This document shows, piece by piece, positions 19,908 to 60,674 of a stretch of DNA of 64,000 bases (position 1 is its first letter; the number at the start of each line of letters is the position of its first letter). The DNA comes from a candidate division WOR-1 bacterium RIFOXYB2_FULL_46_45 (GTDB lineage: Bacteria > Margulisbacteria > WOR-1 > XYC2-FULL-46-14), in assembly GCA_001771585.1 (NCBI GenBank), contig MEUE01000001.1, positions 21,062-85,061 of the forward strand. Direction: 5' to 3'. The position numbers and the translations under genes were made by a program. Below the pieces are notes generated by a model. The model was not told where the DNA came from, did no database searches, and saw only the letters and a list, made by a program, of their open reading frames with translations.

Positions 19908-21323
19908 ATGAGCATAATTGTAAATAGATATGGTTTGCCTAAAAGGGAAATAGCTCACCTAATATTTTCAAACGAGTCAAATAAAGCAGACGATTCACTT
20001 ATACAACGGATAGTTATGCCTTTTCATCAAAATGGAACTTTTTTTATTGGAGAAAGAGCAAACAATCCTCCTTATATTCGAGGTGAAAAGAATGAAGGAT
20101 TTCTTCCTTGGGCTAGAGAAGTGACTCTTCAGGACCTAGAGCTATTAGAAATGAGTAAAGAGTTGTCTGGAATAAGTCTTTCCGAAGGAGATAGGGTATT
20201 AGTTGCCGATGCAGTTGCTAATTCTCTTACTTACTCAGATGTTGATGGCGTTCCAATTGCAGATAAAATACCTAATCAAAACTATATTGATTATGTAAGA
20301 AGATCAATAGGCTTATTATTATTTAATGATGTTAATAAGGAGTTTGATTCTGAAAAAGAGTATAACTCTCTAGGGAGAGCGGTCGTTTTATCTGTTGTAG
20401 AAAAACTAGAAAAAGAGAAACTAGAAAATCTTATGGTTTATGCAATTCTTGCCGGAGTAATTGGACTCGATATTAAATGTTCTTTTTGTGCTGCTTCAAC
20501 TTTTGATAGAAAAGGGTCTATTTGGTTAGGATGCTATGACTCTCATGATTCCGCTGTAGAGGGAGTAATTCTTGATTTAAGAAGAAGGATATCGCAATTT
20601 GATACACTTTTGTTTGACTGGAATAAATATCATTCATTGGTTTTAGAAAATCCTTGTATGCTAACTTTTTTCCCTGATGATATTCCAGAAACAATATTTG
20701 ATCTGTATCAATTACAAAAGCAAATGCTTTTTAATCCGCAACTTAGAGTACAGGTGATACCAAGAGGAGGTAGATTTCATAATGATGCCTCTTTTGAAGA
20801 TACTATGGGCCTACTTGATGAACCAATATTTTCAGATCTCGGAAGATTTATGAATGAGGGGCGTCTAGTTGTTTCTCCTCATGGCCCTAAAAATGGAGGG
20901 CTTGATTTAACCAAATTATCAAGAGAGGCAGCAGAGCTCGTCCTTGCTTCAGATGTATTGTATATAAAAGGTTCGCGTTCCTATGAGTTGGCGGCAACCG
21001 GGATCAGAATTCCGACATTTTTTGCACAAACAGTTTCAAGAGAGTTTTCAGAATCAGTTATTGGTGTTGATGCAAATAAAATGTTACCAGCTTTACAATA
21101 TGTACATGCTTTTCCTGGATTTTGGGGTTTTAGAAACAGAAATAATAACGAAGGATGGACTTCTGATATGACGGCAATTCAAAGTTCTCGTTTTATTCAG
21201 TCAGCACCCTTTGCTCGTTATGCTGATCAATATGGAGGAGTGGATGCGCTATCTCTTAGGATAATGGATAGATCTATCCAAGAAGGGATTCCACCACATT
21301 TAATAGAATTATGCATTTTGTAA
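19908..21323 (+). CDS. Hypothetical protein, possibly a DUF89/ARMT1-like damage-control phosphatase
   Basis: FFPDDIPETIFDL resembles the DUF89 DNAGE-x-FD metal motif, and VLYIKGSRSYE resembles the KGxxNYE motif. The gene has strongly lower GC and different codon usage from its neighbours. Confidence 0.3.
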   Translation: MSIIVNRYGLPKREIAHLIFSNESNKADDSLIQRIVMPFHQNGTFFIGERANNPPYIRGEKNEGFLPWAREVTLQDLELLEMSKELSGISLSEGDRVLVADAVANSLTYSDVDGVPIADKIPNQNYIDYVRRSIGLLLFNDVNKEFDSEKEYNSLGRAVVLSVVEKLEKEKLENLMVYAILAGVIGLDIKCSFCAASTFDRKGSIWLGCYDSHDSAVEGVILDLRRRISQFDTLLFDWNKYHSLVLENPCMLTFFPDDIPETIFDLYQLQKQMLFNPQLRVQVIPRGGRFHNDASFEDTMGLLDEPIFSDLGRFMNEGRLVVSPHGPKNGGLDLTKLSREAAELVLASDVLYIKGSRSYELAATGIRIPTFFAQTVSREFSESVIGVDANKMLPALQYVHAFPGFWGFRNRNNNEGWTSDMTAIQSSRFIQSAPFARYADQYGGVDALSLRIMDRSIQEGIPPHLIELCIL

Positions 21324-22306
21324 AAGGAACAGCATCATTATATAGGCCAATATTGTTATCATTGATTAGGTCAAGATCTCTTTCTGGATTGCCTTTATAT
21401 GTCGATGTTCATCCTACAACAAGGTGTAACTTGGAATGCCGCTGGTGTGTTAACAAAACAAATAAAGATACCGCGGCTTCGGAAACAATGAATGATGTTA
21501 ATATTCCTATGTATTTAACTAAGCTATTGGAGCCTCGTCCCAATAGTCCTTCCTATTCTCCCAAAAGAATTCATTTTTGTGGCGGAGAACCATTATTAAG
21601 ACGATCCGTTGTATTAGCCGGAATACGTTTTCTTGAAGGAAAAGATATTGCTGTCTCTCTTGTAACCAATGGAACATTATTAATCCAGGAAGTTAGACTG
21701 GCTGTTTTGGGCGTTGAATCCCTACAGGTTAGCATAGATGCTCAGGACCGCGAAACTTACGCCAGATTAAAAAGGGGAGATTATTTTGAGCAGGTTCTAA
21801 GAAACTTAGAAGCTTTAGCTAATTTAAGATCTAAGTCAAATTCATCTTTGCGTCTCGTAGTTAATTACGTTTTGTGCAGAGATAATATAAATGCCCTTCA
21901 TCCCTTTTTAACGCGGCTTTCAAATATTGGAGTTGATAAAATACAATTTAGAACCGATTTGACTGCTGATTTAGAAACTCAAAGAGCTTTACTTCAGGAA
22001 GTAATTGGCCTAAAGTATGAAGCTCCATTATCGGTAATAATTAAGTCTCCCGACACTCCAGTTACTAGAGATTCTTTTGACAATTGCTTGGCCCGTTTTA
22101 TTTGGATTGTTTTGGGATCGGATTTATCTATTTATCCTTGTGCCCATACGGTAGCCAGAGGTTTTCAAATGGGAAGTTTAATTGACTCTAATCTTTTTGA
22201 AGTTTTAGAAAAAAACATTAAATCCCCAAACCCCAATTGTTTGAGGATTTGTCCCTCTACTTGTGGAAATATCAATCTCCTAGGGCAGGAGATTTTAGAT
22301 CAATAA
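21311..22306 (+). CDS. Radical SAM enzyme with a C-terminal SPASM/twitch-like Cys cluster
   Basis: The CxxxCxxC motif is TTRCNLECRWC, with GGEPLL present. The C-terminal cysteines are CAHT...NCLRICPSTCGN. It overlaps the preceding gene by 13 nt and lies in the same low-GC segment. Confidence 0.75.
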   Translation: MHFVKGTASLYRPILLSLIRSRSLSGLPLYVDVHPTTRCNLECRWCVNKTNKDTAASETMNDVNIPMYLTKLLEPRPNSPSYSPKRIHFCGGEPLLRRSVVLAGIRFLEGKDIAVSLVTNGTLLIQEVRLAVLGVESLQVSIDAQDRETYARLKRGDYFEQVLRNLEALANLRSKSNSSLRLVVNYVLCRDNINALHPFLTRLSNIGVDKIQFRTDLTADLETQRALLQEVIGLKYEAPLSVIIKSPDTPVTRDSFDNCLARFIWIVLGSDLSIYPCAHTVARGFQMGSLIDSNLFEVLEKNIKSPNPNCLRICPSTCGNINLLGQEILDQ

Positions 22307-25645: not shown

Positions 25646-26920
25646 ATGATAGCAATTAGACCTGGCCATGCCGCAATTCAACCTAAAGCCATACAAGTAC
25701 TACCAAAAGGATCGGTGGATTTTTCTACTGTTCGGTCTCATGCTTTGATGGTGGGGAGTACAAGTTTTTCGCTTAGCAAGTTTAGACGTGGGGGGAGCGA
25801 TATTGCAATAAGCATTGGCGAATTAGAACTTGGGAAAATAGGAATGAACCAATCGATCGCTTTAGTTTATGGCGGGGTTGATTATGTCTTTTCCAGGAAA
25901 ACCTGCGCCGAACTTGATACTGTTTCTGTTGCTGCTTTGGATCTGCCTTCTGACATAGAGCCATATTATCATTCCATGAATATGGCTCTAGAAAGGATGG
26001 AAGCTGAAGGATTCGAAGAAGATGGTCCGATTATAAAAAGACCCGCTATAACCAGGCAAGTACAAGTTGATTCTTCTGATGTCAAATGCATGGGAGATCC
26101 GGGATATTTAATAGAAATTAATCCTGGAGTAAAAACAGTATTTATCGGAGATCTTCACGCGAATGCTAAAAATTTATTAAGCGCCGTAAACGCCCACGAA
26201 AAAGAATTGGCTGAAGAAAAGGTTGTTATTGTGGTTATGGGGGATGCTATCCATCCCCAAACCGGCAACTTGGAAGAAATGGATTCTTCAATTGAAATGA
26301 TCAGGATTATTTGCGACCTAAAAGCAAAGTACGGGGATTGTTTTCATTATATATTGGGGGATCATGAAACCTTGGAACCCGGATTCATGACAAAGAGAAA
26401 TATTGACCAGCCGGATCTTTTTGTGAAAGCGGTAGTTAGAAAACTCGGTAATGCGTATGTCAGAAAGATCGATGCTTTATGGAAAGGCTGTCCATATGCG
26501 GTACTTATACCTGGAATTGCTTTTGCGGCACATAATGCTGTTGTGGAAAACTTGAACGGTATAGATGATATTATTCACGCGGGACTTCCCGGAAGCGAGA
26601 GGGTGGCCTTGACCTTATTGAGCTTCAGGCCAGAAGCAGTTGATTTGAAAAGCGGTAATACTTATCCCCCCCAAGCCTCGGAAAGGATGAAACAACTTTT
26701 AAAAGTAAAAAACCTGATTTCTGCCCACACCTCGGATCCGGAGGGTAAAAGTTCAATTGTAACTTTTGGGCAAATGCCCGGCCATTATTTCCTTCAAGGA
26801 TGGGGAAGCCCCGAATTCTTGCCGTTTCAGGTTATGGAGGTTGGGGAAGACGGGAATTTGCTCCCAATATTTATTAGTCCTGATGGAGAAAAAAGCCTCG
26901 GACAAGTGAGGAATATATGA
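25646..26920 (+). CDS. Two-domain protein with an unknown ~150-aa N-terminal domain and a calcineurin-like metallophosphoesterase domain (divergent PPP motifs)
   Basis: GDLHA, GDAIH and GDHE occur at PPP-like spacings (~31 and ~39 aa), resembling GDxHG / GDxxDRG / GNHE. A strong SD AGAGGAGG lies upstream. GC is lower than in the flanking genes. Confidence 0.45.
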   Translation: MIAIRPGHAAIQPKAIQVLPKGSVDFSTVRSHALMVGSTSFSLSKFRRGGSDIAISIGELELGKIGMNQSIALVYGGVDYVFSRKTCAELDTVSVAALDLPSDIEPYYHSMNMALERMEAEGFEEDGPIIKRPAITRQVQVDSSDVKCMGDPGYLIEINPGVKTVFIGDLHANAKNLLSAVNAHEKELAEEKVVIVVMGDAIHPQTGNLEEMDSSIEMIRIICDLKAKYGDCFHYILGDHETLEPGFMTKRNIDQPDLFVKAVVRKLGNAYVRKIDALWKGCPYAVLIPGIAFAAHNAVVENLNGIDDIIHAGLPGSERVALTLLSFRPEAVDLKSGNTYPPQASERMKQLLKVKNLISAHTSDPEGKSSIVTFGQMPGHYFLQGWGSPEFLPFQVMEVGEDGNLLPIFISPDGEKSLGQVRNI

Positions 26921-27513
26921 GCGACTGGCAGTGTAATTTTAAACCGACGGCACAAAAATATTATACATTAAAACCCGAGGATAAGCTGTGTGTAAATACC
27001 GATCCAAACAAGCATTATCGAATCGAGGTTAAAAGCAGGGACGATGCCGAATTAAAGCTTCGTGAATTAGCAAAAAAAGCATTAACTGAAGAGTCTTGGA
27101 TATATATTGAAGTTAAATTAAAGAATGGAAAAATTGCCAGGTTTTTGTGCGAAGACGGGGTTAATGAAGAAAAAGGAGCGATCGGCGAAGTCAACATAAA
27201 AGTTCTAGACGAAATTTTGAAATTAGGACAGATTCTTGAAATAGGGGATTATCACATCCACCCAACAGATTCCCTAAAAAGTGTAAGTAGTCTTGGATTG
27301 CCAGTGTTTGATTTGACATCTCCCGCTGATTTAGAAAGTGCGAACACAAGGAAAGAATATCTTGCTCGACAAGGATTTAAAGATATTCCTTATGATTCAA
27401 GATCGGTATCAGAAAAAAAAGTAATTATTGTCATTCCTCCCAAGGAAGAAGCTGGAGAATTTCCATTTTCTTTCATTTCTTCTATCCCAAAAATTATTTA
27501 TAGAAAGTTTTGA
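26917..27513 (+). CDS. Hypothetical protein (198 aa), translationally coupled to the upstream phosphatase-like gene
   Basis: The ATGA overlap couples it to the upstream gene. It contains EIGDYHIHPTDSLKS, which is His-rich but not a clean JAMM motif. No recognisable family was found. Confidence 0.35.
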   Translation: MSDWQCNFKPTAQKYYTLKPEDKLCVNTDPNKHYRIEVKSRDDAELKLRELAKKALTEESWIYIEVKLKNGKIARFLCEDGVNEEKGAIGEVNIKVLDEILKLGQILEIGDYHIHPTDSLKSVSSLGLPVFDLTSPADLESANTRKEYLARQGFKDIPYDSRSVSEKKVIIVIPPKEEAGEFPFSFISSIPKIIYRKF

Positions 27514-27607
27514 TGTGGTTATTTTAATGAATTTAGAATAGGGAAAGACAATTCATACAAGCTTTTTTAATGCAAGTTTGTTTAACATCATTGCGATATA
27601 ATAATGT

Positions 27608-28246
27608 ATGACACACGTCTTTAATATTGACCAGATTAAGCCAATTAATCGTCATCGGCCAATAGAAATTGACAACGAGAGCAGAGCTTTATCTGAAGAG
27701 TTAAAAGGTCTAAAGTATATTCCTCATCAGGAAATTCAATCAGTTGGACCACAAGTAGTAGTTCTACCCCAAAAGCCTGAGGCAGCTGGTGTTCAAAATG
27801 TAAGGACAACAGAGCACGCTGGGGGCGGGGATTGTGATGATCTGGCCCTAAAAGCTGCTTACGAAAGAAACAAAACAGCGCCAAGGCACATTGAATATGG
27901 GGTAATATCCGGATATTCTGAAAAAGTTCCTGGCAAAAAATACGATGGGCATGCCGTTATGGCAAAATTCAATAAGAGGGAGCGAAAATTTTATTTATAC
28001 GAGGTTGCGGATCCTGCCAATCCTCACCTTATTGGCAGTTTTTCGGCAAAACAAATACCCTCAAAGAGCATTCCGCAACTCAAAACCGGTGAATTTGTTA
28101 GGAATGTTTATTTTGGTGTTACAAAAGATGGAAAACCTGATTTTACAAAGAAGAGATATTTTGTTCCTGCTCCAAAGGATATTCTAAAACCATTATTTAG
28201 GCAGATAGAATTCCCAACTCTGAAACCTGAAAATCAATTGGGTTAA
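27608..28246 (+). CDS. Small transglutaminase-like cysteine peptidase family protein
   Basis: A Cys-His-Asp triad is at TGase-core-like spacing: GGGDCDDLA (C76), DGHAVMA (H115) and YEVADPANP (D135), resembling GxCxxFA / GHAW / DPT. Confidence 0.4.
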   Translation: MTHVFNIDQIKPINRHRPIEIDNESRALSEELKGLKYIPHQEIQSVGPQVVVLPQKPEAAGVQNVRTTEHAGGGDCDDLALKAAYERNKTAPRHIEYGVISGYSEKVPGKKYDGHAVMAKFNKRERKFYLYEVADPANPHLIGSFSAKQIPSKSIPQLKTGEFVRNVYFGVTKDGKPDFTKKRYFVPAPKDILKPLFRQIEFPTLKPENQLG

Positions 28247-38878: not shown

Positions 38879-39744
38879 ATTTACCCGGCCTAAAACTTTT
38901 TCGCAAGGGAAAAGTGCGCAATGTCTTTGACTTGGGAGATAAACTGCTCCTGGTCGCCTCCGACCGCATTTCCGCCTTTGATTCGGTCATGCCCAATGGG
39001 ATCCCGGATAAAGGGAAAATCCTAACCCAGATATCGCTTTTTTGGTTTGATTTAGTAAAAGATATTATTCCCAATCACGTCATTTCAGCCGATGTGAATG
39101 ATTTCCCGATTGAACTTCAAAAATACAAAAAACAATTGGAGAAGCGCTCCATGCTTGGGAAAAAGGCCAAGGGAATTCCGGTTGAATGCGTGGTGCGCGG
39201 CTATCTCTCCGGCTCCGGTTGGAACGAATACCAAAAAAGCCGGACAATCTGTGGGATAAAACTGCCGGAAGGGCTAAAAGAATCTGACAAGCTTTCCGAA
39301 CCGATCTTTACCCCGACCACCAAGGCCGAACAGGGGCATGATTTGAATATCACTTTTGACGAAGTGATCGATACGGTCGGGAAAGAGACGGCCGATTTCA
39401 TCAAACAAAAGACGATTGAGGTCTATTCCGCCGCGGCGGAGTATGCCCTGAAAAAAGGGATAATAATTGCCGATACCAAATTTGAGTTTGGTTTTGTCGA
39501 CAATAAAATAATTCTGATTGACGAGATTTTGACCCCCGATTCTTCCCGTTTCTGGCCGGCCGACCAATACCGCCCGGGGAGCGGACAGCCCAGTTACGAC
39601 AAGCAATATGTCCGCAATTATCTGGTTTCAATCAAATGGGACAAGGAACCTCCCGCGCCAAAGCTTTCGGATGAGGTGGTAGAAAAAACGCGGGATAAGT
39701 ATATGGAAGCATACAGGATGATAACGGGGAAGATTAATTTATAG
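38854..39744 (+). CDS. purC: Phosphoribosylaminoimidazole-succinocarboxamide synthase
   Basis: LFRKGKVRNVFDLGDKLLLVASDRISAFD is the SAICAR synthetase signature. Confidence 0.9.
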   Translation: MEETLQDIDLPGLKLFRKGKVRNVFDLGDKLLLVASDRISAFDSVMPNGIPDKGKILTQISLFWFDLVKDIIPNHVISADVNDFPIELQKYKKQLEKRSMLGKKAKGIPVECVVRGYLSGSGWNEYQKSRTICGIKLPEGLKESDKLSEPIFTPTTKAEQGHDLNITFDEVIDTVGKETADFIKQKTIEVYSAAAEYALKKGIIIADTKFEFGFVDNKIILIDEILTPDSSRFWPADQYRPGSGQPSYDKQYVRNYLVSIKWDKEPPAPKLSDEVVEKTRDKYMEAYRMITGKINL

Positions 39745-40041
39745 CTTCTTCCATAATCTCGTCAGATCTCTTTTTCCGTGAATTATTCCCAATATTACAA
39801 TCCGTGAATCTTCCAACAGATAAATTAATCGGTAGTCGCTTACAAATAATTCCCTTATCTTGGAAGTATCGAATTCCGGAACAACTCGTCCTCTTTCCGA
39901 TAATTGACCAAGAGAATTAGCGGCATTGACGATGTCTTGTACAAAAGAGGCGGCGTAATAATGGGAATCCCTCGCTATGTATTCAGCAATGGATTCGAGA
40001 TCTTTGACTGATTCCTGTGCCCAGACTACTTTTCTAGCCAT
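39739..40041 (-). CDS. parE: Type II toxin-antitoxin system RelE/ParE-family toxin
   Basis: The 100-aa product reads VVWAQESVKDLESIAEYIARDS...RLIYLLEDSRIVILGIIHGKRDL, typical of ParE/RelE. Confidence 0.7.
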   Translation of the reverse strand: MARKVVWAQESVKDLESIAEYIARDSHYYAASFVQDIVNAANSLGQLSERGRVVPEFDTSKIRELFVSDYRLIYLLEDSRIVILGIIHGKRDLTRLWKKL

Positions 40042-50041: not shown

Positions 50042-53000
50042 TTACGCGTTCACCAGATTACTCGCATCCCTATAATGCTCGTAAACAAAGTTATAAACTT
50101 CGATTTTCTTTATTTCACAATCTTGCTCTGTATAAGTTGGTTCCGGCAGTTTTTCATACAAAAGATCAGAAATGGTAGTTTTGACTCCTGCCCTATTTGG
50201 CTCAAAATCTCGCCAGTGAGAAACCAAAAGCGGCTTGAGATTTATAAGCAATTCATGAGATGTACCTTTTATGCAAGCAACTTCATCGGGATTGAGATTA
50301 TCTTTGATAAGCAGATCAAAAATCGCTAACTCCTCTTCGGTCATGTTTTCTCTGGCAGCGCGTTGTTCTTCTTCACTTAGATCTTTTGCCAAATCGATGA
50401 GATCTTCAAAAAGCTGGTCAATGTCATGGGCGCCGCTATTATATTCTTGCAAGAGAGAAATAAGCCTTTCCATAAATTTGGCCCGTTTTTTGTTTTTTCT
50501 AACCATTTCCGCTATTTTCTTTTTAAGTTCGGCACTCATACAAGCTACTTGCATATTCTTGTTTTCCAGCCCGGCAAAAAAAGCCTGAAGGGCATTGGCA
50601 TCAAGCAAGCTCAAATCTTTTATCTTTTTGTGCTGTGGAATGACATATTCACCCGCCTGGATAGATTTATCCAGCAAATCCTCTAAATCTTTTTTTACCT
50701 GGGAAACGTCCACGCTTTTTGCTCCCACATCGCGGATACGAGATGCCAAAACACGGACAGCTGTTACTTCGCGGCAATAATCTTCCGCGTTGGGATCAGG
50801 CAAGACCGAACGATAAGCGCTTTGCAAATCACTGGAAAGATTAAGAAACTTTTTCTTGTTTTCCTGGACGCCAATAATTTTGTCGGCATATTGTTCCAGG
50901 ATCAGCAATTTCTGCTCGCTCGGCGCTGCCAATAAAGGCTCAAGCTCCATTTTCTCTCCCCGCATAAATTCCTTTGCATTACGCAACGCCTTTTTCAGAT
51001 CAGTAAGCAACTCGTCTTTACTCCGAATAATTTCATCCTCATCCGTTCCGGTGGCCGCATATAAAGCCAAAGCACGCTCAATATTTTTAAACACGCCAAT
51101 ATAATCCACGATTAAACCGTTTTTCTTCCCTTCATCAGCAACACGGTTAGCGCGCGCGATAGTTTGCATCAAGGTATGGTTTTTAAGCGGCTTATCCAAA
51201 TAAAGAGTGGAAAGATTGGGCACATCAAAACCGGTCATCCACATGGCACAAACAAAGATAATGCGCAGATTGCTATTAGCCTTCTTAAACTCCTCTTCCA
51301 GATTACCATGGATTATCCGCTCTCTAATCGGTCGGACATCAATTTCATACTGTTCCATATCGCTAATTTCGTTTTGGTTGTCGCCCAAGCTGACCATAAC
51401 TGCCATATCCACTTTTTCGTATTGCTCCAGTTTGGCAAGGATCTTTTCCTGCTCGCGCTCGTCGGCAACGCGGGAAAGATCCATGCGCAATTTTGCAATA
51501 TAACGGCCCCATTCTTTTTTTACTTTGTCATACATCCTGAAAGCGGTCTTTTTATCAATGGATACCACCATTGCCTTGCCATCGTATCCCCGCCCCACAA
51601 AGTGCTCCACAATATCGCGGGCAATAGTATTAAGCCGGTCTTCACGGGTAACAATTTCATAAAAAGTGGAGTATTCCCTTTCCAGTTTTTCCTCTTCATC
51701 CTCATCAAGGTCATACCTGTCCAGCAATTGCCCTAATTGAACTTCCAGGTTTTCATTAACATTTTTGAGGCGCGGAACCCGATTCTCGTAAAAGAGCGGA
51801 ACGGTTGAACCATCAGCCACTGACTGTCCAAAGTTATAAACGGAAACATACTCGCCAAAAGTTTTGATTGTTTCCGGCTCATTAGCAGCCATCAATGGGG
51901 TACCGGTAAAGCCGATAAAAGAAGCGTTAGGCAGGGCCCGGCGCATATTAAGAGCCATTTGATCATACTGGGTGCGGTGCGCCTCATCGGTCATAACGAT
52001 TATGCTGTCGCGCGTGGAAATTGGTCCGGAGATATCCTGGAATTTTTGGATAGTAGTAAAAATTTGGCGATGGTCCTCACCCAGCAAAGCGTGAAGATGA
52101 GCGATGCTTTCAGCATGAACCTCTTTTTCATAAACCGCGCCAACATGGGCAAAATTATCATATGCTTGTCCATCCAGCTGCGCCCGGTCAGTTACAATTA
52201 CAAAGGTAAAATTGCCTTCCAATTTACGCAAGACTTTTTGCGACAGCCAGACCATGGAATATGATTTTCCCGAGCCTTGCGTGTGCCAGAAGACGCCAAG
52301 TTTGCCATCTTTTTCGTGACGATCAACGACATTATTAAATGCGCGATTGACCCCAAAATATTGAAAATAGCGCGGGAGTATTTTTTTGACAGAGCCAAGG
52401 GATTCGTCAAACAGCACAAAGTTTTCCAAGATATCAAGCAAGCGTGTTTTGTCGCAAATGCCGTTAATAATTGTTGCTAGGTCTGTTCTGGGTTTATCTT
52501 CTTCCCTTTTCGCCTTTTTCCATTCGTTAAAAAACTCATAAGGAGAGGTAAGGGAGCCAAATTTATTTTCAATGCCGTTAGAAATAATAATTCCCAGGTT
52601 ATACCAAAAAAGCTTGGGGATAGTGCCTTTGTAATCGCGGATATTATCGCGGTAGGCGTCAACCAGGCTTTTGTGCGAAGCTTTTAGTTCCAGGAGCACT
52701 AGCGGAATACCGTTAACAAAGAGGACGATATCCGGGCGTCTGGTATACATGGGGCCAACCACCCAGAGCTGGGAAACACAAAGGAAGTGGTTGTTTTTAG
52801 GGTTTTCAAAATCAAAAAACCGCACCCGATCTATTTTGTTTTGTCCTTTAGTATTAACGGTTTTAACGTTTGCCCCATCGCGCAAGAGCTGATAAACTTC
52901 GTGATTAGCTTTAACCAGGCTTAGGTTGGAGCGATCGCGGATAAGTTCATCTATGGCAATAACGAGGGCGCTTTCGGACAAGTGGGGATTGATCTTTTTA

Positions 53001-53173
53001 AGCGCTGGCATGAGATATTTTTCCAGCACCACTTCACCTTGATTTTTACGGCCAAGCAACAAATCGTTTTCTTCTTTAAAGGTGTCAATATGACAATCTT
53101 TATCCGCCCAAACTTTTTTGATGAGCCTGATAACCGTTTTTTCCACTAAATTAGCTTCGTTAAATTGGGTCAT
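50042..53173 (-). CDS. hsdR: Type I restriction enzyme R subunit (HsdR)
   Basis: The 1043-aa product has an SF2 helicase core with DEAH (VMTDEAHRTQ). Confidence 0.92.
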   Translation of the reverse strand: MTQFNEANLVEKTVIRLIKKVWADKDCHIDTFKEENDLLLGRKNQGEVVLEKYLMPALKKINPHLSESALVIAIDELIRDRSNLSLVKANHEVYQLLRDGANVKTVNTKGQNKIDRVRFFDFENPKNNHFLCVSQLWVVGPMYTRRPDIVLFVNGIPLVLLELKASHKSLVDAYRDNIRDYKGTIPKLFWYNLGIIISNGIENKFGSLTSPYEFFNEWKKAKREEDKPRTDLATIINGICDKTRLLDILENFVLFDESLGSVKKILPRYFQYFGVNRAFNNVVDRHEKDGKLGVFWHTQGSGKSYSMVWLSQKVLRKLEGNFTFVIVTDRAQLDGQAYDNFAHVGAVYEKEVHAESIAHLHALLGEDHRQIFTTIQKFQDISGPISTRDSIIVMTDEAHRTQYDQMALNMRRALPNASFIGFTGTPLMAANEPETIKTFGEYVSVYNFGQSVADGSTVPLFYENRVPRLKNVNENLEVQLGQLLDRYDLDEDEEEKLEREYSTFYEIVTREDRLNTIARDIVEHFVGRGYDGKAMVVSIDKKTAFRMYDKVKKEWGRYIAKLRMDLSRVADEREQEKILAKLEQYEKVDMAVMVSLGDNQNEISDMEQYEIDVRPIRERIIHGNLEEEFKKANSNLRIIFVCAMWMTGFDVPNLSTLYLDKPLKNHTLMQTIARANRVADEGKKNGLIVDYIGVFKNIERALALYAATGTDEDEIIRSKDELLTDLKKALRNAKEFMRGEKMELEPLLAAPSEQKLLILEQYADKIIGVQENKKKFLNLSSDLQSAYRSVLPDPNAEDYCREVTAVRVLASRIRDVGAKSVDVSQVKKDLEDLLDKSIQAGEYVIPQHKKIKDLSLLDANALQAFFAGLENKNMQVACMSAELKKKIAEMVRKNKKRAKFMERLISLLQEYNSGAHDIDQLFEDLIDLAKDLSEEEQRAARENMTEEELAIFDLLIKDNLNPDEVACIKGTSHELLINLKPLLVSHWRDFEPNRAGVKTTISDLLYEKLPEPTYTEQDCEIKKIEVYNFVYEHYRDASNLVNA

Positions 53174-54666
53174 AATTTTTGAGAAAAATAATTACATGCT
53201 TCTAATAGAAACTGTTCGAATTCGACAAGCCAATTATTAAAATCATCATTATTCAACATTTCCTTATAAAGCTGATTAAAAACTTCGTTTTCAGTTATAG
53301 AGATCGACGCCTCAACACATCTAGAAAATAAAATATGGGCAGGAGAATGATCTAAATGATATTGCAAATTTGCATTCGGATATTTATTTAAGTAATTTCT
53401 CAGCAAAAATTTTTCTGGGGGGTCACCAGAAAAGAGAAAACTTATTCTATCATCGGTTCCGATTATTGCTGAATAAACATCTCTCTTATCTCCATCAAAA
53501 ACCGCAGCATATCCAATATTTATTTTTGAAAGACCCCAAGTTCTCTTAAATACATCATAATTTTCCTTGACTTGTTTATCCGAACCAGAAAGAACAACGT
53601 TAATGTGTCTGTGTATATCACGATAACCTTTGTTTTGTAATGATTCCAGTGCTTTATTTATTATTCTTAGAGATACCGGATCTTCATAAAATAGATTTAA
53701 AAGTGGAAATATCTGAGAATCCATCTTTGAAAAAGCCGCATTAACACTAATTCTTTGAATTGAACGAGAATCATTGTTTTCCTTTTTTTCTATAAAAATA
53801 CGCGACTCATGATCAAAACTTGCAAGAAGCGTTGGCGAGTGCGTCGTAACAATAAATTGTTTTTGATCTTTCAATGCTATGTCCATTAAGACATCTACAA
53901 GTCTTCGTTGGATTTTAGGGTGCAACCCCAACTCTAATTCGTCAATTAAAACAAGAGATTTCTTCTCAGCCTGAACAGAATCAAGCAGGATGGCCAATAA
54001 AACATCTTCTCCAGAAGCTGAATTAAAACTGGTAAAAACATTATTCAGTTTATAACTGGCCTTATTATGATGCCTTGCGATATGAGCAAGCTCAAACGAA
54101 GTTTCAAAAACATACTCAAAATATTCAACAACCCGAGGATCAAGCTGAGTAATCGCTCCAGATGCCTGTGTATTAATAAACAAGACATTTGAACATGCCC
54201 GTGCTGGAGTTATGCGATCCACATCTATATAAATGACTTTTCTGTTTCGTATTTGACTTTCTTTTTTTGCAATCCCACTCCATTTTTTTGTGATAGCTGT
54301 TCTTTTTCCTTCTTTTTCTTCAGCATGCTTACCTATTTTATATTTAATATTATATTCCCAATCAGATGCCTGCTTATCATGTTTGGTAAATTTAACCAAA
54401 CGACCCCAAGTACAACGATTAAATTCCCCAGTCCCAATATCTCTCATTTGAAACTCAAAATGACTGCACGCCAACATAGCCAAAATGCTGGTTTTGCCAA
54501 TTTTATTGGTACCTGTAAGAACAGTTAGTGGATGTATAAAATTTAGATCCAATCTTGATATATTTCGAAACCTTTTTATAATCAATTTATGAGTAAATAG
54601 CGGAAATTGATGTTCATTGTCAAGATCAATATTTTTTAATTGTTGCCGAGTTTTATTAGGATTCAC
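53170..54666 (-). CDS. AAA_21-type ABC ATPase with a C-terminal TOPRIM-like region (RloA/RloB-, OLD- or PARIS-like candidate defence protein) embedded between hsdS and hsdR
   Basis: Walker A is LTGTNKIGKTS, Walker B is LVLIDELELGLHP, and the H-loop is IVTTHSPTLL. The C-terminal ~170 aa carry VVLSGSDK...AVFDGDKRD (TOPRIM-like DxD). It has 4-nt overlaps with both hsdR and hsdS. Confidence 0.55.
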   Translation of the reverse strand: MNPNKTRQQLKNIDLDNEHQFPLFTHKLIIKRFRNISRLDLNFIHPLTVLTGTNKIGKTSILAMLACSHFEFQMRDIGTGEFNRCTWGRLVKFTKHDKQASDWEYNIKYKIGKHAEEKEGKRTAITKKWSGIAKKESQIRNRKVIYIDVDRITPARACSNVLFINTQASGAITQLDPRVVEYFEYVFETSFELAHIARHHNKASYKLNNVFTSFNSASGEDVLLAILLDSVQAEKKSLVLIDELELGLHPKIQRRLVDVLMDIALKDQKQFIVTTHSPTLLASFDHESRIFIEKKENNDSRSIQRISVNAAFSKMDSQIFPLLNLFYEDPVSLRIINKALESLQNKGYRDIHRHINVVLSGSDKQVKENYDVFKRTWGLSKINIGYAAVFDGDKRDVYSAIIGTDDRISFLFSGDPPEKFLLRNYLNKYPNANLQYHLDHSPAHILFSRCVEASISITENEVFNQLYKEMLNNDDFNNWLVEFEQFLLEACNYFSQKL

Positions 54667-54670
54667 ACTT

Positions 54671-55828
54671 TCAACCCCTCTTCCCCGTAACCAACTGGGG
54701 AATTAAAAGATCACGGATTTTGGATAGATTTTGACTTTGATCAAGCAGGTTTGTAATTTTTGACCGGAGCATAGAAACCTTACTCTCAAAGTCTTCTAAT
54801 GTTTTTTTGTCTGGAACAAGTATATTGATCATTCCTACTTGTTTTGAATTTACGCTTTTCCTGGTAGTCCCACTTGATGAACCAACTACAAAGTTTTGAT
54901 ATTTTTCTGATATTAGAAAATAAAACAAAAAATAGCTTGTTAGCCGGCTCTTTATTTTTAATCTCATTAGATATGAGGCAAAAATTGCATCAACCTGCTT
55001 TTCACATATACCTATTTTCCCCGGATCAGCCATACGAATAATAAATATGTCCCCTTTTTGTATTGTGTATCTATTTTTATCATCTGCTTTAATTTCACAA
55101 CACGGCACAGATGACCAATTTATGTATGAAGTCTTATTAATATCCATACCTCGTAAAAACTTAACGCCGGATGTTTTGTCAATTGCTGATGTGGTAAACC
55201 CATATTGTGGTTGTATTAAATCCCCCAACCTCTTCACCCCCCACCCCTCCGGTATCTTGCCATACTCTGTCCCACTATCAACCATCTTAACCTTTTTATG
55301 GCAAGGAAATTTAAACTTCACAAACCACTCGGCATAAAGCCGCTGGGCTATTTCTTCCAGAATTTTGATCCGCTTTTCGTTGTTTTCAATCAGATCGTCG
55401 TAGGTGGAGAGGATGGAGGCGATGCGGGATTGGGTTGGGAGATCGGGACGATATGCAATAATTTGATTTAATAATCTTTGCGTCATTAATGGCTGGGCAG
55501 CGCCACCAGCATATTTATTTAAGTTTAATATCCTTAATAAATAATTGACATATGTCAAATTATTTTCTTCTTCATCAACTTTTGCAACTATTGTATTGTC
55601 AGAAGCCCAAAATCTACTTTTGCACATTTCAACGGATCCACAATAAGCGCCCACTCTACCTATTATTATTGCATTTTCATATTGGTATTCCTCAGATCCA
55701 CCAATGACCCCATTTGAACCAAAAACAGGATATCTCCCCTCTCCTCCAGGCCTTATTGATTTTCCATTAAAGAAATGTAATAAATCCCTTAATCTCACTT
55801 TCTTAAAATTTGCCTTATTTCTTTTCAA
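54671..55828 (-). CDS. hsdS: Type I restriction-modification specificity subunit (HsdS), two target-recognition domains
   Basis: The 385-aa product has HsdS-typical central and C-terminal conserved helices (LDDLIENNEKRIKILEEIAQRLY, LLDQSQNLSKIRDLLIPQLVTGK). Confidence 0.85.
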   Translation of the reverse strand: MKRNKANFKKVRLRDLLHFFNGKSIRPGGEGRYPVFGSNGVIGGSEEYQYENAIIIGRVGAYCGSVEMCKSRFWASDNTIVAKVDEEENNLTYVNYLLRILNLNKYAGGAAQPLMTQRLLNQIIAYRPDLPTQSRIASILSTYDDLIENNEKRIKILEEIAQRLYAEWFVKFKFPCHKKVKMVDSGTEYGKIPEGWGVKRLGDLIQPQYGFTTSAIDKTSGVKFLRGMDINKTSYINWSSVPCCEIKADDKNRYTIQKGDIFIIRMADPGKIGICEKQVDAIFASYLMRLKIKSRLTSYFLFYFLISEKYQNFVVGSSSGTTRKSVNSKQVGMINILVPDKKTLEDFESKVSMLRSKITNLLDQSQNLSKIRDLLIPQLVTGKRG

Positions 55829-55899
55829 TTCTCAACCTCTCCATCCCATGTTTCCTCCCTGACTTTCCAATCAAATAGCCATCAAATGACCTTCCCCAA

Positions 55900-56034
55900 T
55901 TAATATCTTTTGCCATCAGAACCAGTATTCCGGAATTTCCGGATAACTGCCTCCTTTGTCAATTCCGCTGCCAAAAATATGTTTTGCAAGTGCTCACTGA
56001 CTGTACGCACATCAACGCCAAAAAGTTCCTCCAT
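55900..56034 (-). pseudogene. Relic 44-codon fragment of a RhuM-family gene between hsdM and hsdS
   Basis: Translation MEELFGVDVRTVSEHLQNIFLAAELTKEAVIRKFRNTGSDGKRY aligns with the core of the intact RhuM two genes upstream (IALLFGVQRPAITKHLKNIFENGEL...TADDGKTY). It is truncated at both ends. Confidence 0.4.
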
Positions 56035-56040
56035 CCCTTT

Positions 56041-57621
56041 TCATACTACTTCCTTCCAGTCTTTAATTATCTTCTTTTCCAGCTTGTGTGATTCTTCAGT
56101 TAAAGAAGTAAATTCCGTCATTAACTCTTTCATCTTGGCGTCGAAATCAACCTTGCTGACTTCTTTTTCCACAATCTCCACGTAGCGCCCGGGATTAAGA
56201 GAATAGTCATTAGCACGCACTTCATCTAAAGTTGCAACTTTTGAGCGGCCCTTGATATCAGCATATTTTCCCGCGCCCTCTTCCTCACGATATCGCCGCA
56301 CAATACCGGCAATCTCCTGTATCTGCTCATCAGTCCAGGTACTATGAGCACGATCAATTTCAGTATAAATATCCTGGGCGTTAATAAAAAGAATTTTATT
56401 TTGCCTTTTTGTCCCGGCTTTGCGCTTATCAAAAAACCAAAGGGTACAGGAAAGCGTGGCGTTTAAAAACATATTGGTACCAACGGATAAGATAACATCC
56501 ACTATCCCATCCTCAACCATTTTTTGCCGAATAACTTTTTCGGCATTGCCGGCATCGGTCGCCGAATTGGCCATAACAAAGCCTGCCCGGCCTTGAGCAT
56601 TGAGCGCGCTGGCAAAGATTTGCATCCAAAGATAATTGGCGTTACTGATCTCTTTTTTCCCAGTCAGCGGCAAACCAAAATAATAGCGGGGATCACCTTG
56701 GAGACGCGCTTGGTCAATTACAATCTGCTTATTTTTATCTATACCCTTAACATTAAAAGGTGGATTAGCCAAAACAAAATCAAATTTACCTAAACTCTGA
56801 AAGGGATCTTCGTAATATGAATTTGTTTCGGCAATTTTACCGGACAGCCCGTGGATAGCCAGGTTCATTTTAGCGATATGCACATTAGCGGTTGTCTTCT
56901 CCTGGCCGTAGAGCGCGACCTCATTCATAACCCGCGTTTTATTTTTAGCGTGGGCCTCAACAAAATGGGCGGATTGGACAAACATGCCGCCGCTGCCGCA
57001 AGCCGGGTCAAAGATTTTACCATGATACGGCTCAAGGATTTCAACAATTAATTTTACAATCGGCTGCGCCGTAAAAAATTCGCCCCCTTTCGCTCCCTCT
57101 TTGCGGGCAAATTCACCAAGAAAATATTCGTATATTCCACCAAAAGCATCCCCCTCAATATCATCGGGAATTTGGTTAAAATTCTTAAGCAGAGTTACCA
57201 GTATCCGATTGTTTTCATCGGCTTTTTTCGAGAGTGAAGTGTAGTCTTGCGGCAAAACTCCGGCCAGATCGGTATTCTCTGCCTCGATTGCCTTCATTGC
57301 CTCATTAATTGTTTTTCCAATATCTTTGTTCTCGGGCAGGTTCATTAAGTATGAATAGGTGGCAATTTCAGGAAGATACAAAACTCCTTTTGATTTGTAA
57401 TGGTCTGGTGTTAATGGTACTTGCCGAGTACCCTTATTGTTTTTCCGTTCTTCTGCTATTTTTTCTTTGGCTCTTTTGAAGCGGACATCCGCGAATTTAA
57501 GAAAAATTAAACCAAGGATTGGCTCGGATATTTCATTGAGCTTAAGGCTGGAATTTGCCCGAAGTTGCTCTGCTGCAGCCCATAATCTTTCGTGGAGTTG
57601 TTTGCGGCTTGGTAGTAACAT
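56041..57621 (-). CDS. hsdM: Type I restriction-modification N6-adenine DNA methyltransferase (HsdM)
   Basis: The N-terminal HsdM_N domain is present. Motif I is DPACGSGGM and motif IV is NPPFN. Confidence 0.92.
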   Translation of the reverse strand: MLLPSRKQLHERLWAAAEQLRANSSLKLNEISEPILGLIFLKFADVRFKRAKEKIAEERKNNKGTRQVPLTPDHYKSKGVLYLPEIATYSYLMNLPENKDIGKTINEAMKAIEAENTDLAGVLPQDYTSLSKKADENNRILVTLLKNFNQIPDDIEGDAFGGIYEYFLGEFARKEGAKGGEFFTAQPIVKLIVEILEPYHGKIFDPACGSGGMFVQSAHFVEAHAKNKTRVMNEVALYGQEKTTANVHIAKMNLAIHGLSGKIAETNSYYEDPFQSLGKFDFVLANPPFNVKGIDKNKQIVIDQARLQGDPRYYFGLPLTGKKEISNANYLWMQIFASALNAQGRAGFVMANSATDAGNAEKVIRQKMVEDGIVDVILSVGTNMFLNATLSCTLWFFDKRKAGTKRQNKILFINAQDIYTEIDRAHSTWTDEQIQEIAGIVRRYREEEGAGKYADIKGRSKVATLDEVRANDYSLNPGRYVEIVEKEVSKVDFDAKMKELMTEFTSLTEESHKLEKKIIKDWKEVV

Positions 57622-57680: not shown

Positions 57681-58763
57681 TCATCCCTCTTTGCTTCCAC
57701 GCTTCTTCTTCTCAATAGCCAAAAACTTTTTCACCTCGCGGTCAAAATCGGAAATGTAGTTTTTGTCCTGCGCCTGGCGATATTTTTCATATTCTTTCAA
57801 TGCCAGTGTCTCGGCGACTTCGTGTGCAATTTTCCCGGCGTCACCCAATATTTGTTGCTCGTTAAATTTTAGAAATGCGTCTAATTTTGATACCCAGTCC
57901 TTCATATACATAATAATCCCGCGATTAGCCTGCATTTCCGCAAAATCAAGGTACATGGTTACGATCCTATTGAGGTGATCAAGCTCTTTTTCGTTGAGAT
58001 AGTTTTTGGCAATCACCACGTCGGCCTCTCGAATTTTACCCTTTGGAGCATTTTTCCAAACAGTCAGCCCCATATTCACTTTAGTACTATCGGCTCTTTC
58101 GTGGATTATCTCTGCGGCAGTTTTGCCCGTCATGGCAAAGTGAAGCTTGTTTTGCACTGTGGCAAAAAATTGCCTGGTTATGTCGCTGTCTGGGGAATAG
58201 TCCGCACTACACTCCGCGTATATATCGGTAATCTTTTGATACATCCGTCTTTCGCTTGAGCGTATATCTCGTATTCGGGCAAGCTGCTCCTCAAAATAGT
58301 CTTGGCCAAAGATATTGTAAGGATTTTTGAGCCGCTCGTCATCCATGGTAAAGCCTTTGATGATATATTCTTTTAGCCTTTCCGTGGCCCAGATTCGAAA
58401 TTGTGTCGCTTGCGCGCTATTGACCCGATACCCCACGGAGAGAACCGCATCAAGATTGTAAAACTTTGTATTGTACGTTTTTCCATCATCGGCAGTATGT
58501 TCCAAAATGGAACTAACTGAATTTTCATTTAATTCGCCATTTTCAAAGATATTCTTAAGATGTTTAGTAATAGCAGGCCTTTGTACTCCAAATAAAAGGG
58601 CAATTTTGTCTTGAGTAAGCCAAATGTTTTCATCGCGCAAAAATATCTCAACTTTCACTTTGCCATTTGGTGTGGTATAAAGTAAAAACTCCGTAAAACT
58701 GTTGTTGGTAACAATTTGTTGGTTCTTTTTTTTCATAAGCGGTTTATCCTCACTATCTATCAA
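57681..58763 (-). CDS. rhuM: RhuM-family protein
   Basis: KVKVEIFLRDENIWLTQDKIALLFGVQRPAITKHLKNIFENGEL...DGKTYNTKFYNLDAVLSVGYRVNSAQATQFRIWAT is a strong match to the PF13310 RhuM consensus. Confidence 0.8.
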   Translation of the reverse strand: MIDSEDKPLMKKKNQQIVTNNSFTEFLLYTTPNGKVKVEIFLRDENIWLTQDKIALLFGVQRPAITKHLKNIFENGELNENSVSSILEHTADDGKTYNTKFYNLDAVLSVGYRVNSAQATQFRIWATERLKEYIIKGFTMDDERLKNPYNIFGQDYFEEQLARIRDIRSSERRMYQKITDIYAECSADYSPDSDITRQFFATVQNKLHFAMTGKTAAEIIHERADSTKVNMGLTVWKNAPKGKIREADVVIAKNYLNEKELDHLNRIVTMYLDFAEMQANRGIIMYMKDWVSKLDAFLKFNEQQILGDAGKIAHEVAETLALKEYEKYRQAQDKNYISDFDREVKKFLAIEKKKRGSKEG

Positions 58764-58788
58764 TTTTACGCCAATATTGCCAAATTAT

Positions 58789-60321
58789 CTACACCACCCT
58801 CATCTCCAATATCCGATCCACCCGAAAGACCCGCTCTTCCTGCCGATGATGGCAAAAAGCCCTGATGCCCAAAAAGGGCTTCTCGTTGTAGTACATCTCC
58901 CCCACTTCGAGCGGCTCAATCACCCGCTTTGACTTAACATCCTGCGCCTTGAGATATAAAACCTCAATCCGGTTTTTTTCTTCAATCGCCTTGGTGATTA
59001 TCGCGACTTTATCGTCCAACGAACACAGCTTCTCCGACAATCCGTATTGATACCCGGTCACAAACTTGACCACCCGCCAGTCCATGAAAATATGCCCTTT
59101 TTTGATCGGCTTCTTCAAGACCATCCCTTCCAGACTGCGGCAGCGGCTTAAGGCGACATACATTTGGCCGTGGGCAAAGGTCCCGTTCCCGATATCAATC
59201 ACCACCCGGTCAAAGGTCTTCCCCTGGCTCTTGTGGATAGTGATCGCCCAGGCCAGCTTGAGCGGAAACTGGGTAAAAGAGGCGGTTACCTCCGATTCAA
59301 TCCTCCGGTTTCTAGTATTGTAGCTGAAATGAAAAATTTCCCAGGTGTAAGGGTTAACCTCATGCGTCTCGCCGCTTTGCAATTGGATAACAAGTTCGTC
59401 CTTCTTGATGTCCTTAATTTTAGCCATGGTGCCATTGACCCAGCGGCCAAACTGATCGTTGTTTAGCATCATCACCTGCGCCCCTTTTTTCAGTTTCAGC
59501 TCAATTTCGGTCGGCAATTGATTCCTGTCAAACTGACCCTCCATCTCCCCTTCAAAAACCCGCTCTTTTCCGGGGAGCTGTTCCAGTTTTATTTCATTCA
59601 TCTCTTTTGCCATCCGGTTGGTGGTAGTCAAAAGGATCGAATAATCACCCTTTGGTTCGTAATCCACATCAACTCTTCTGTTAAGTTCCAGCAATTCGTT
59701 TTCTCCGGCGGTGTTGTTGCGGATCGAATTGAGCAGGGCAATAAACTTTTCGTCCCTCTGGCGGTAGACCTTTTCCAGCTCAAGATATTCCATCGTCAAT
59801 TGACCAAAAACTTTTGCGGAAAAAAAATATTCGCTGTCATAATGATTCTTAAAAATATGCTTCTCTTCCCCGGCTACCACCGGCGGCAGTTGATAGAGAT
59901 CGCCAAAAAAGATCATCTGCAGGCCGCCGAACGGCTTTTTCCGGTTCGGACCGTTTAAGCGCAGGAATTTATCAACGCAGTCAAGCAGGTCCGCCCGAAC
60001 CATCGAAATCTCGTCAATCACAATGGCATCAAGCTGTTTATAAATATTCGGCTTTCCGTCTCTAAACTTAATTTCCCTTATTTTTGAGAGCGTTATATCC
60101 GGCTTAAAATGAAAGAAAGAGTGGATCGTTTCTCCTCCCACATTGATCGCCGCCACTCCGGTCGGAGCCAAAACCACCACCCGCTTTTTGGTTTGATTGC
60201 GAAAATAATCGAGCAGGGTCGATTTTCCGGTCCCGGCCTTGCCGGTTATAAAGACATTCTTGCCGGTGTTTTCGATAAGACAGAGTGATTTTTTAAAGAG
60301 TTCGTTAAGTTCTACCGGCAT
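58789..60321 (-). CDS. PIF1/RecD-like SF1B DNA helicase with a C-terminal WYL-like domain
   Basis: Walker A is ITGKAGTGKST. Further motifs are VLAPTGVAAINVGGETIHSFF and DAIVIDEISMV. The C-terminus RVIEPLEVGEMYYNEKPFLGIRAFCHHRQEERVFRVDRI is WYL-like. It is the first gene of the leftward island. Confidence 0.8.
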   Translation of the reverse strand: MPVELNELFKKSLCLIENTGKNVFITGKAGTGKSTLLDYFRNQTKKRVVVLAPTGVAAINVGGETIHSFFHFKPDITLSKIREIKFRDGKPNIYKQLDAIVIDEISMVRADLLDCVDKFLRLNGPNRKKPFGGLQMIFFGDLYQLPPVVAGEEKHIFKNHYDSEYFFSAKVFGQLTMEYLELEKVYRQRDEKFIALLNSIRNNTAGENELLELNRRVDVDYEPKGDYSILLTTTNRMAKEMNEIKLEQLPGKERVFEGEMEGQFDRNQLPTEIELKLKKGAQVMMLNNDQFGRWVNGTMAKIKDIKKDELVIQLQSGETHEVNPYTWEIFHFSYNTRNRRIESEVTASFTQFPLKLAWAITIHKSQGKTFDRVVIDIGNGTFAHGQMYVALSRCRSLEGMVLKKPIKKGHIFMDWRVVKFVTGYQYGLSEKLCSLDDKVAIITKAIEEKNRIEVLYLKAQDVKSKRVIEPLEVGEMYYNEKPFLGIRAFCHHRQEERVFRVDRILEMRVV

Positions 60322-60674
60322 TATTCCATCACCACAAAGGCGATCGCGGTATTTCTTTCGTGGGATAAGCTGACGTGGATTTTGGGCTTCTTTTTTCCGT
60401 TGATATAAATATGCGGCTTGCCGGCTTTATCGTTAACAATTTCTATATGCTTCCAGCTCAAAGTCGCGGTAATTCCGGTCCCGTTCGCCTTGGCATAGGC
60501 CTCTTTGGCGGCAAAACGGACCGCCAATTCAGGAAAGCGGATCGCCTTGTGCGCCTGGCAGTAGCTTAATTCTTTTTGGGTGAAAACCCGCTTTAAAAAA
60601 CGATCGCCGTATCTTGAAACCGCCTCTTTTATGCGGGAAATTTCAACAATGTCAACGCCGATCCCTTTTATCAT
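60321..60674 (-). CDS. acpS: Holo-[acyl-carrier-protein] synthase
   Basis: MIKGIGVDIVEISRI...ERFLKRVFTQKE is the ACPS family. The protein is 117 aa. Confidence 0.9.
   Translation of the reverse strand: MIKGIGVDIVEISRIKEAVSRYGDRFLKRVFTQKELSYCQAHKAIRFPELAVRFAAKEAYAKANGTGITATLSWKHIEIVNDKAGKPHIYINGKKKPKIHVSLSHERNTAIAFVVME

Follow-up and report, generated by a model that had tools for sequence, protein, structure and literature searches.

Bacterial Pif1 helicases that carry a C-terminal WYL domain have been characterised as TePif1 from Thermotoga elfii, DdPif1 from Deferribacter and SsPif1 from Sulfurihydrogenibium. For TePif1, deletion of the WYL domain or mutation of its arginines led to a lower affinity for single-stranded DNA (ssDNA), to lower unwinding and to a higher ATPase activity, so that the domain is regarded as an accessory ssDNA clamp which couples hydrolysis to unwinding (Andis et al., bioRxiv 10.1101/163188). 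For DdPif1 and SsPif1 the helicase cores alone were crystallised (residues 1-433 and 1-438), the WYL part being an AlphaFold model; R464, R491, R495, R498 and R501 of DdPif1 were named as ssDNA contacts, and the authors proposed the WYL extension as a possible heat adaptation (Rety et al. 2023, PMC9964779). Here we analyse a gene of this type on the minus strand of a 64,000-nucleotide stretch of DNA (the window) from the candidate division WOR-1 bacterium RIFOXYB2_FULL_46_45. The gene (58789..60321, stop codon included) is an uninterrupted open reading frame (ORF) of 510 amino acids, whose product is listed in the public record as 'AAA family ATPase' and can with confidence be named a Pif1-WYL helicase. 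We consider it probable (about 0.72) that it is a stand-alone helicase of the TePif1/DdPif1/SsPif1 type, which ends a string of housekeeping genes and borders a later-arrived restriction-modification (R-M) island.

The original prediction, made from the sequence, had assigned the protein to the Pif1 branch of superfamily 1B (SF1B) on the basis of the motifs GKAGTGKST and DEISMV, and this assignment was borne out. The Pfam family PIF1 (PF05970) matches residues 15-203 with an E-value of 1.1e-31 (110.6 bits, cut-off 25.9) and UvrD_C_2 matches residues 356-395, while the Pif1_2B_dom profile stays slightly below its cut-off (22.1 versus 23.9 bits). The helicase was aligned with twelve relatives from several phyla, and in this 13-sequence alignment the Walker A sequence of motif I (residues 27-35; 60217..60243, minus strand) is invariant at G27, A29, G30, T31, G32, K33, S34 and T35, and motif II (residues 103-108; 59998..60015, minus strand) at D103, E104, S106 and M107. 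The Pif1 signature region between motifs II and III (DKFLRLNG...PFGGLQ) is present with K118, F119, F131, G132, G133 and Q135 invariant, and motifs III-VI were found and are invariant as well. NCBIfam returned RecD, RecD2 and TraA exclusively below threshold, as expected for a Pif1-type SF1B protein. Among PDB sequences, similarity in the core extends to Bacteroides Pif1 (5fhd/5ftb, 1e-89, residues 5-425) and to human and yeast PIF1 (1e-46 to 1e-50). An AlphaFold model of the whole protein, built from 13 sequences, was of low quality in domain 1A (pLDDT 67.5) and was left unused.

The WYL domain that had been proposed for the C-terminus lies at residues 439-509 (58795..59007, minus strand). 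WYL (PF13280) scores 39.4 bits there (gathering cut-off 21.8; E 6.3e-10) over profile positions 3-70 of 70, and the tail cited in the original prediction, PFLGIRAFCHHRQEERVFRVDRI, falls within this match. A model of residues 425-510, for which a 12-sequence alignment was the input, reached a mean pLDDT of 86.8 and unveiled a single helix (H11-24) followed by a five-strand barrel. In a Foldseek search against the PDB the best 26 matches to this model were all WYL domains (PafBC, CapW, BrxR, DriD) with TM scores of 0.64-0.74 and root-mean-square deviations of 2.2-3.0 Å over 72-76 columns; a tail that failed to model as WYL had been named beforehand as the outcome that would count against the claim, and the tail did model as WYL. 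The basic residues R466, R493, R497, R500 and R503 are invariant both in the 13-sequence and in the WYL-tail alignment and correspond, with the alignment offset, to the five DdPif1 arginines in the order given above. The domain identity, the fold and the conserved residues of the protein are in this way demonstrated. Pfam detected no helix-turn-helix (HTH) family in the helicase, whose N-terminal 425 residues are the helicase core, and a WYL transcription regulator of the BrxR/CapW/PafBC type was ruled out, as no HTH domain is joined to the WYL domain.

Compared with the described enzymes, the protein matches SsPif1 (8bns) end to end at 1.6e-192 over residues 3-508, and DdPif1 (8bnv/8bnx) at 2.5e-166 from residue 2-3 to 508, the WYL tail and its five arginines included. 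The deposited chains 8bns and 8bnv are full length (517 and 510 amino acids) though truncated cores were crystallised (PMC9964779), so that a sequence match to them does not imply a solved WYL structure. With TePif1, to which the link was made through the DdPif1 and SsPif1 sequences, the protein shares the three-part layout of Pif1 core, UvrD_C_2 and WYL and the same conserved WYL arginines; unlike the thermophilic source of TePif1, the host here is a mesophilic groundwater bacterium of candidate division WOR-1 (Saganbacteria), the genome bearing the exact protein comprising about 1.67 Mb. Bacteroides Pif1 (BaPif1/BsPif1, 5FHD/5FTB) and eukaryotic PIF1 (6HPT, 5O6B) share the SF1B core with all motifs and the signature region but have no WYL domain, and similarity to them stops near residue 425-440. 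BrxR, CapW, PafBC and DriD share the WYL fold, yet they are HTH transcription factors with the WYL domain as sensor, whereas here it is fused to a motor enzyme; DriD, PafBC and CapW are reported to bind ssDNA via this domain. The Pif1-WYL architecture was already said to be known, in agreement with the TePif1 biochemistry and with the end-to-end alignments to 8BNV and 8BNS, and judged by its sequence the helicase is an ordinary member of this characterised family.

In analogy to the characterised homologues, the SF1B core would bind ssDNA, translocate 5'→3' driven by ATP and unwind forked, 5'-tailed and G-quadruplex DNA; from TePif1 we infer ATP-dependent 5'→3' DNA unwinding and expect an ssDNA-stimulated ATPase. 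The WYL barrel would grip the 5' ssDNA exiting the core via the conserved arginine patch and thereby raise ssDNA affinity and couple ATP hydrolysis to productive unwinding, the ssDNA binding of the domain being expected here from the TePif1 mutants. A role in genome maintenance may be assumed by the same analogy.

On the minus strand the gene order is argS, Aminotran_4 (ilvE-like), acpS, helicase, RhuM, hsdM, hsdS, PtuA-like AAA_15/AAA_21 ATPase, hsdR and a response regulator. The stop codon of acpS (PF01648) demonstrably overlaps the start codon of the helicase gene in the sequence TAATG (60319..60323, minus strand), one base being common to both. The content of guanine and cytosine at third codon positions (GC3) is 0.607 for the helicase gene and 0.55-0.58 for argS, ilvE and acpS, with a mean of 0.505 (standard deviation 0.103) for 41 other genes of the window, and the codon-usage distance of the helicase gene is core-like. 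At the helicase stop codon a clear step in composition occurs, the G+C content falling from 0.50 to 0.36 right there in a 400-nt profile, and an 8.8-kb island of RhuM, hsdM, hsdS, ATPase and hsdR genes begins, with GC3 values of 0.446, 0.419, 0.332, 0.236 and 0.449. We propose that the helicase gene is the last gene of argS-ilvE-acpS-pif1, translationally coupled to and co-expressed with acpS, and that the type I R-M island with its own accessory genes would have been inserted at its 3' flank later.

The island starts with the RhuM-family gene (57681..58736, minus strand; Pfam Virulence_RhuM 4.4e-110, PADLOC PDC-S05 3e-147), which is separated from the helicase stop codon by a 52-nt spacer (58737..58788, minus strand) according to the called ATG. 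Within this spacer lie a weak match of sigma-70 type (TAGATA-17-TAAAAT) and a ribosome-binding site, GAGGA; shuffled sequences gave promoter-like matches at least as often, so the spacer promoter is weak evidence. The type I R-M module proper (50042..57621, minus strand; GC3 0.24-0.45), identified by Pfam, NCBIfam and PADLOC, consists of hsdM (56041-57621), hsdS (54671-55828) and hsdR (50042-53173), with the PtuA-like ATPase gene (53170-54666; Pfam, PADLOC HEC-04 3e-31) in between. The island thus has two accessory genes, RhuM ahead of hsdM and the ATPase gene wedged between hsdS and hsdR, the latter beginning 4 nt after hsdS, overlapping hsdR by 4 nt and showing the lowest GC3 of the region. 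An 18-nt inverted repeat of 94% complementarity has one arm in RhuM (58478-58495) and one in the WYL-coding part (58840-58857), 344 nt apart, and is probably due to chance. An apparent hsdS/ATPase strain variant in two contigs (L006/L132; handles of this kind denote our loci and contigs) turned out to be a gene-calling difference, the DNA being identical.

It had been proposed that the helicase gene is the first gene of the hsd operon. Its position fits this description, with RhuM, hsdM, hsdS, the AAA ATPase gene and hsdR lying downstream in the same orientation. The overlap with acpS and a GC3 of 0.607 against 0.24-0.45 for the island speak against operon membership, but the lack of a predicted terminator ahead of RhuM makes read-through possible. 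Neither does the wider comparison favour it. As the sample, the best 80 loci (49-60% identical to the helicase) were taken from a collection with one genome per species, and acpS and ilvE adjoin the helicase gene neither in these 80 loci nor in the close relatives, so the locus itself is not conserved. Most relatives have the helicase without an R-M system; its conservation in relatives lacking the R-M genes, which had been named as a counter-indication, is therefore seen for the gene and not for the site.

The neighbourhoods in this sample are demonstrably variable. The 262 ORFs at ranks +/-1-2 of 74 species-level loci match more than 360 Pfam families, heterogeneous and mostly metabolic, and control ORFs at ranks +/-5-8 resemble this near set. 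According to PADLOC, defence genes are few in the near set and no commoner there than in the far one, and clustering of all neighbour ORFs from about 85 independent loci gave no recurrent partner. HsdR lies near the helicase gene in two species-level loci, L071 and L072, which are counted as one lineage because their helicases are 94% identical; no other lineage in that sample has a type I R-M system nearby. In these alphaproteobacterial loci the helicase gene comes straight after a complete R-M module on the same strand, the end of hsdR overlapping the helicase start by 10 nt in L072, and in L071 a gene for a YgjP-like metallopeptidase (9274-9987) lies between hsdR and the Pif1-WYL gene. Beyond this sample the family is very large, the best 120 cluster representatives being at least 58% identical to the helicase.

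The suggested check for co-occurrence with hsd genes turned out negative. Besides the window, an R-M system of type I or Eco57I type adjoins the helicase gene in 4 independent lineages among 89 independent full-length loci: L001 (Eco57I-type methylase and specificity subunit upstream), L128 (hsdM 93 nt downstream), L071/L072 and the metagenomic L095. As a small HsdR hidden Markov model (HMM) missed the EcoEI-type HsdR of L095, HMM-based counts are lower bounds; scanning the neighbour sets with Pfam and PADLOC is less prone to bias. Co-occurrence and co-orientation with hsdR, hsdM and hsdS are not consistent across genomes, and the helicase as a type I R-M component was rejected; it does not belong to the hsd system. 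PADLOC-DB v2 holds no model matching the helicase over its full length; partial matches connect the P-loop region with PDC-S68 and RecD-like models and the WYL tail with Cas-associated WYL models. The helicase thus resembles accessory genes of type I R-M loci (RhuM/Fic, YgjP, PtuA-like ATPases) in directly flanking such a locus, both in the window and in six other independent lineages (seven loci, L071/L072 being one lineage), but unlike it, RhuM (PDC-S05) and the ATPase (HEC-04/PtuA-like) match PADLOC.

The close clade, with helicases 66-74% identical, belongs to the Margulisbacteria/Saganbacteria and shows both kinds of surroundings. Some close relatives (66-72% identity) are embedded in plain housekeeping genes: panB and aroK flank the helicase gene in L126, nadC and uvrD-ychF-rpsF-ssb-ssb-rpsR-rplI-uvrC in L127, and relA and trpD on the P0023 contig, while L089, L092 and L129 have mixed contexts. 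The Margulisbacteria locus L090 (8001-17605) reads Pif1-WYL, RhuM and cas3-cas5-csd1-cas7-cas4-cas1, i.e. a type I-C CRISPR-Cas system stands where the window has type I R-M, its helicase being 69% and its RhuM 61% identical to those of the window. In L091, genes for RhuM-N/Fic, a deaminase and an SLFN-like helicase lie beside Pif1-WYL. A metagenome scan aimed at close relatives returned sequences of at most 56% identity throughout, many of them without WYL, and yielded two further loci: L095, with Pif1-WYL, 162 nt, EcoEI-type HsdR, Fic, HsdM and HsdS, and L094 (5042-11457), with ftsW, murG, Pif1-WYL, 7 nt, RhuM-N/Fic and murC. The genome of the window (L003) has murG and murC side by side, so the pair in L094 resembles a two-gene insertion.

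These loci are the basis for a possible functional connection to immunity, according to which the helicase, perhaps as a two-gene Pif1-WYL plus RhuM/Fic cassette, would be tied to DNA-targeting systems and act together with translocating nucleases (type I R-M HsdR, type I-C Cas3), with the WYL domain sensing ssDNA from restriction or infection. Such a connection would account for the direct adjacency to R-M systems in the window and in the four lineages named above, for RhuM together with type I-C cas genes in L090 and RhuM-Fic with an SLFN-like helicase in L091, and for the close pair between murG and murC; the adjacent R-M systems lie on either side of the helicase gene and are mutually unrelated (hsdM 23-37% identity), so the juxtaposition arose repeatedly, and in BrxR, CapW and DriD the WYL domain acts as a sensor for responses to attack or damage. 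We nevertheless regard it as unlikely. Defence genes adjoin the helicase gene in 7 independent events among the 89 loci (8%, window excluded), leaving about 92% without a defence neighbour, and whether the overall excess is significant depends on the background rate for a random gene, an assumed figure: it is at about 2% or less, and not at 4%. The defence-adjacent helicases form no sublineage of their own but are scattered among the non-adjacent ones by sequence, the nearest to that of the window being L126 and the nearest to L001 being L127. In TePif1 and DdPif1 the same WYL residues make up a constitutive ssDNA clamp, no fusion to Fic, RhuM or hsd was found among the longer relatives, and in the window the coupling to acpS and the core-like composition also speak against it. 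A text search of the literature gave no paper treating Pif1-WYL as a defence gene. The earlier preference for a defence-associated over a housekeeping role therefore holds to the extent that defence adjacency exists, mostly within the same clade, and not beyond, R-M being rare and the neighbours mostly metabolic; a defence role as a property of the family is not supported.

A narrower version of this idea is that Pif1-WYL plus RhuM/Fic forms a small mobile cassette which would accompany or seed type I R-M and type I-C CRISPR-Cas systems in Margulisbacteria/Saganbacteria and some other uncultivated lineages, the WYL clamp acting on HsdR or Cas3 intermediates. We hold it to be decidedly improbable.

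Several observations do weigh against the stand-alone reading. No terminator-like hairpin was predicted in the 52-nt spacer, so read-through from the helicase gene into the island is possible. The order Pif1-WYL to RhuM/Fic recurs in the window, L090, L094 and L091, and defence genes adjoin the helicase gene in 4/10 loci of the close clade but in 1/73 of the species-level loci (Fisher p = 5e-4). Upstream synteny is not kept even between helicases of 80-86% identity, and the gene is therefore not a fixed landmark of the core genome. Furthermore, both PMC9964779 and 10.1101/163188 describe the function of bacterial Pif1 in the cell as unknown, for which reason the genome-maintenance role is an analogy. 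What remains is a weak lead, a lineage-restricted tendency to border RhuM/Fic and defence modules, which shared hot spots or a functional link could explain.

The unsteady surroundings also raise the question of whether the gene is cargo of the flexible genome, often transferred into R-M/CRISPR hot spots without functional link and here simply the oldest part of the island. The distribution would agree with this: among the species-level hosts are the CPR bacteria, Dehalococcoidia, Deltaproteobacteria, Nitrospirota, Omnitrophota, Elusimicrobia, Proteobacteria and six metagenome-assembled genomes (MAGs) of DPANN archaea, identities of 49-60% spanning CPR, Chloroflexota, Deltaproteobacteria, Omnitrophota and several DPANN archaea. 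Both flanks differ between 80-86% identical helicases, tyrosine recombinases occur near the gene in 7 loci, and L094 represents an insertion in the dcw cluster. At the locus itself, however, neither an integrase nor a tRNA gene nor a flanking direct repeat marking the island was found, a search for att-like repeats around the island giving short imperfect matches only, and the start overlapping acpS as well as the core-like GC3 and codon-usage distance speak against cargo. On all 24 contigs examined for the identical protein the arrangement is the same wherever flanks are present; a strain with an empty site was not found, since every contig carrying either this helicase gene or the response regulator gene downstream retains the island or ends within it. 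Moreover, no relative with a WYL tail turned up in the phage, plasmid (tblastn) and IMG/VR collections, where the relatives consist of the core alone, reach 52% identity at most and stop near residue 420-438. Cargo without a functional link is the most doubtful of the explanations considered, and the stand-alone housekeeping-linked helicase remains our preferred one.

The DPANN genes (L015, L018, L020, L059, L062 and L067 from Aenigmatarchaeota, Woesearchaeota, Nanoarchaeia, Micrarchaeota and Marsarchaeota) encode proteins 52-58% identical to the helicase, which suggests inter-domain transfer if the MAG assignments hold. Variation of the architecture was also observed. Metagenomic loci L117-L122 (e.g. 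L117:6770-8629) encode a 619-residue Pif1-WYL with an insert of about 100 residues after core position ~221, a 1082-residue relative (L087:5281-8529) has a DUF3857 domain after the Pif1 core instead of the WYL tail, and in relatives of about 800 residues (L111-L114, e.g. L111:6376-8829) the WYL domain is replaced by a C-terminal region without Pfam match. To judge from these sequences, swapping of accessory domains on a constant motor seems common in the Pif1 family.

Elsewhere in the window, two low-GC patches (both 0.36-0.37) were considered as defence islands, and neither resembles one: the first (19908-22306) holds an ARMT1-like gene and a radical-SAM gene between two phosphofructokinase paralogues, and the second (26917-28246) two ORFs of 198 and 212 amino acids without Pfam match. 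Among purine-biosynthesis genes, a 100-residue ParE-family toxin gene (39739-40041, minus strand; Pfam, matching contig L130) is accompanied by a small upstream ORF, with which it likely forms a toxin-antitoxin pair.

With respect to the published picture, the analysis adds two points. In one clade the helicase gene lies repeatedly at the border of RhuM/Fic genes and defence modules, a pattern too weak and too lineage-restricted for a defence claim; if the cassette described above proved real, it would be the first physiological role for a bacterial Pif1. The WYL-bearing form, for its part, occurs widely in uncultivated bacteria that are not thermophiles and in DPANN archaea, and this wide spread in MAGs of non-thermophiles argues against the WYL extension as a heat adaptation as proposed in PMC9964779.

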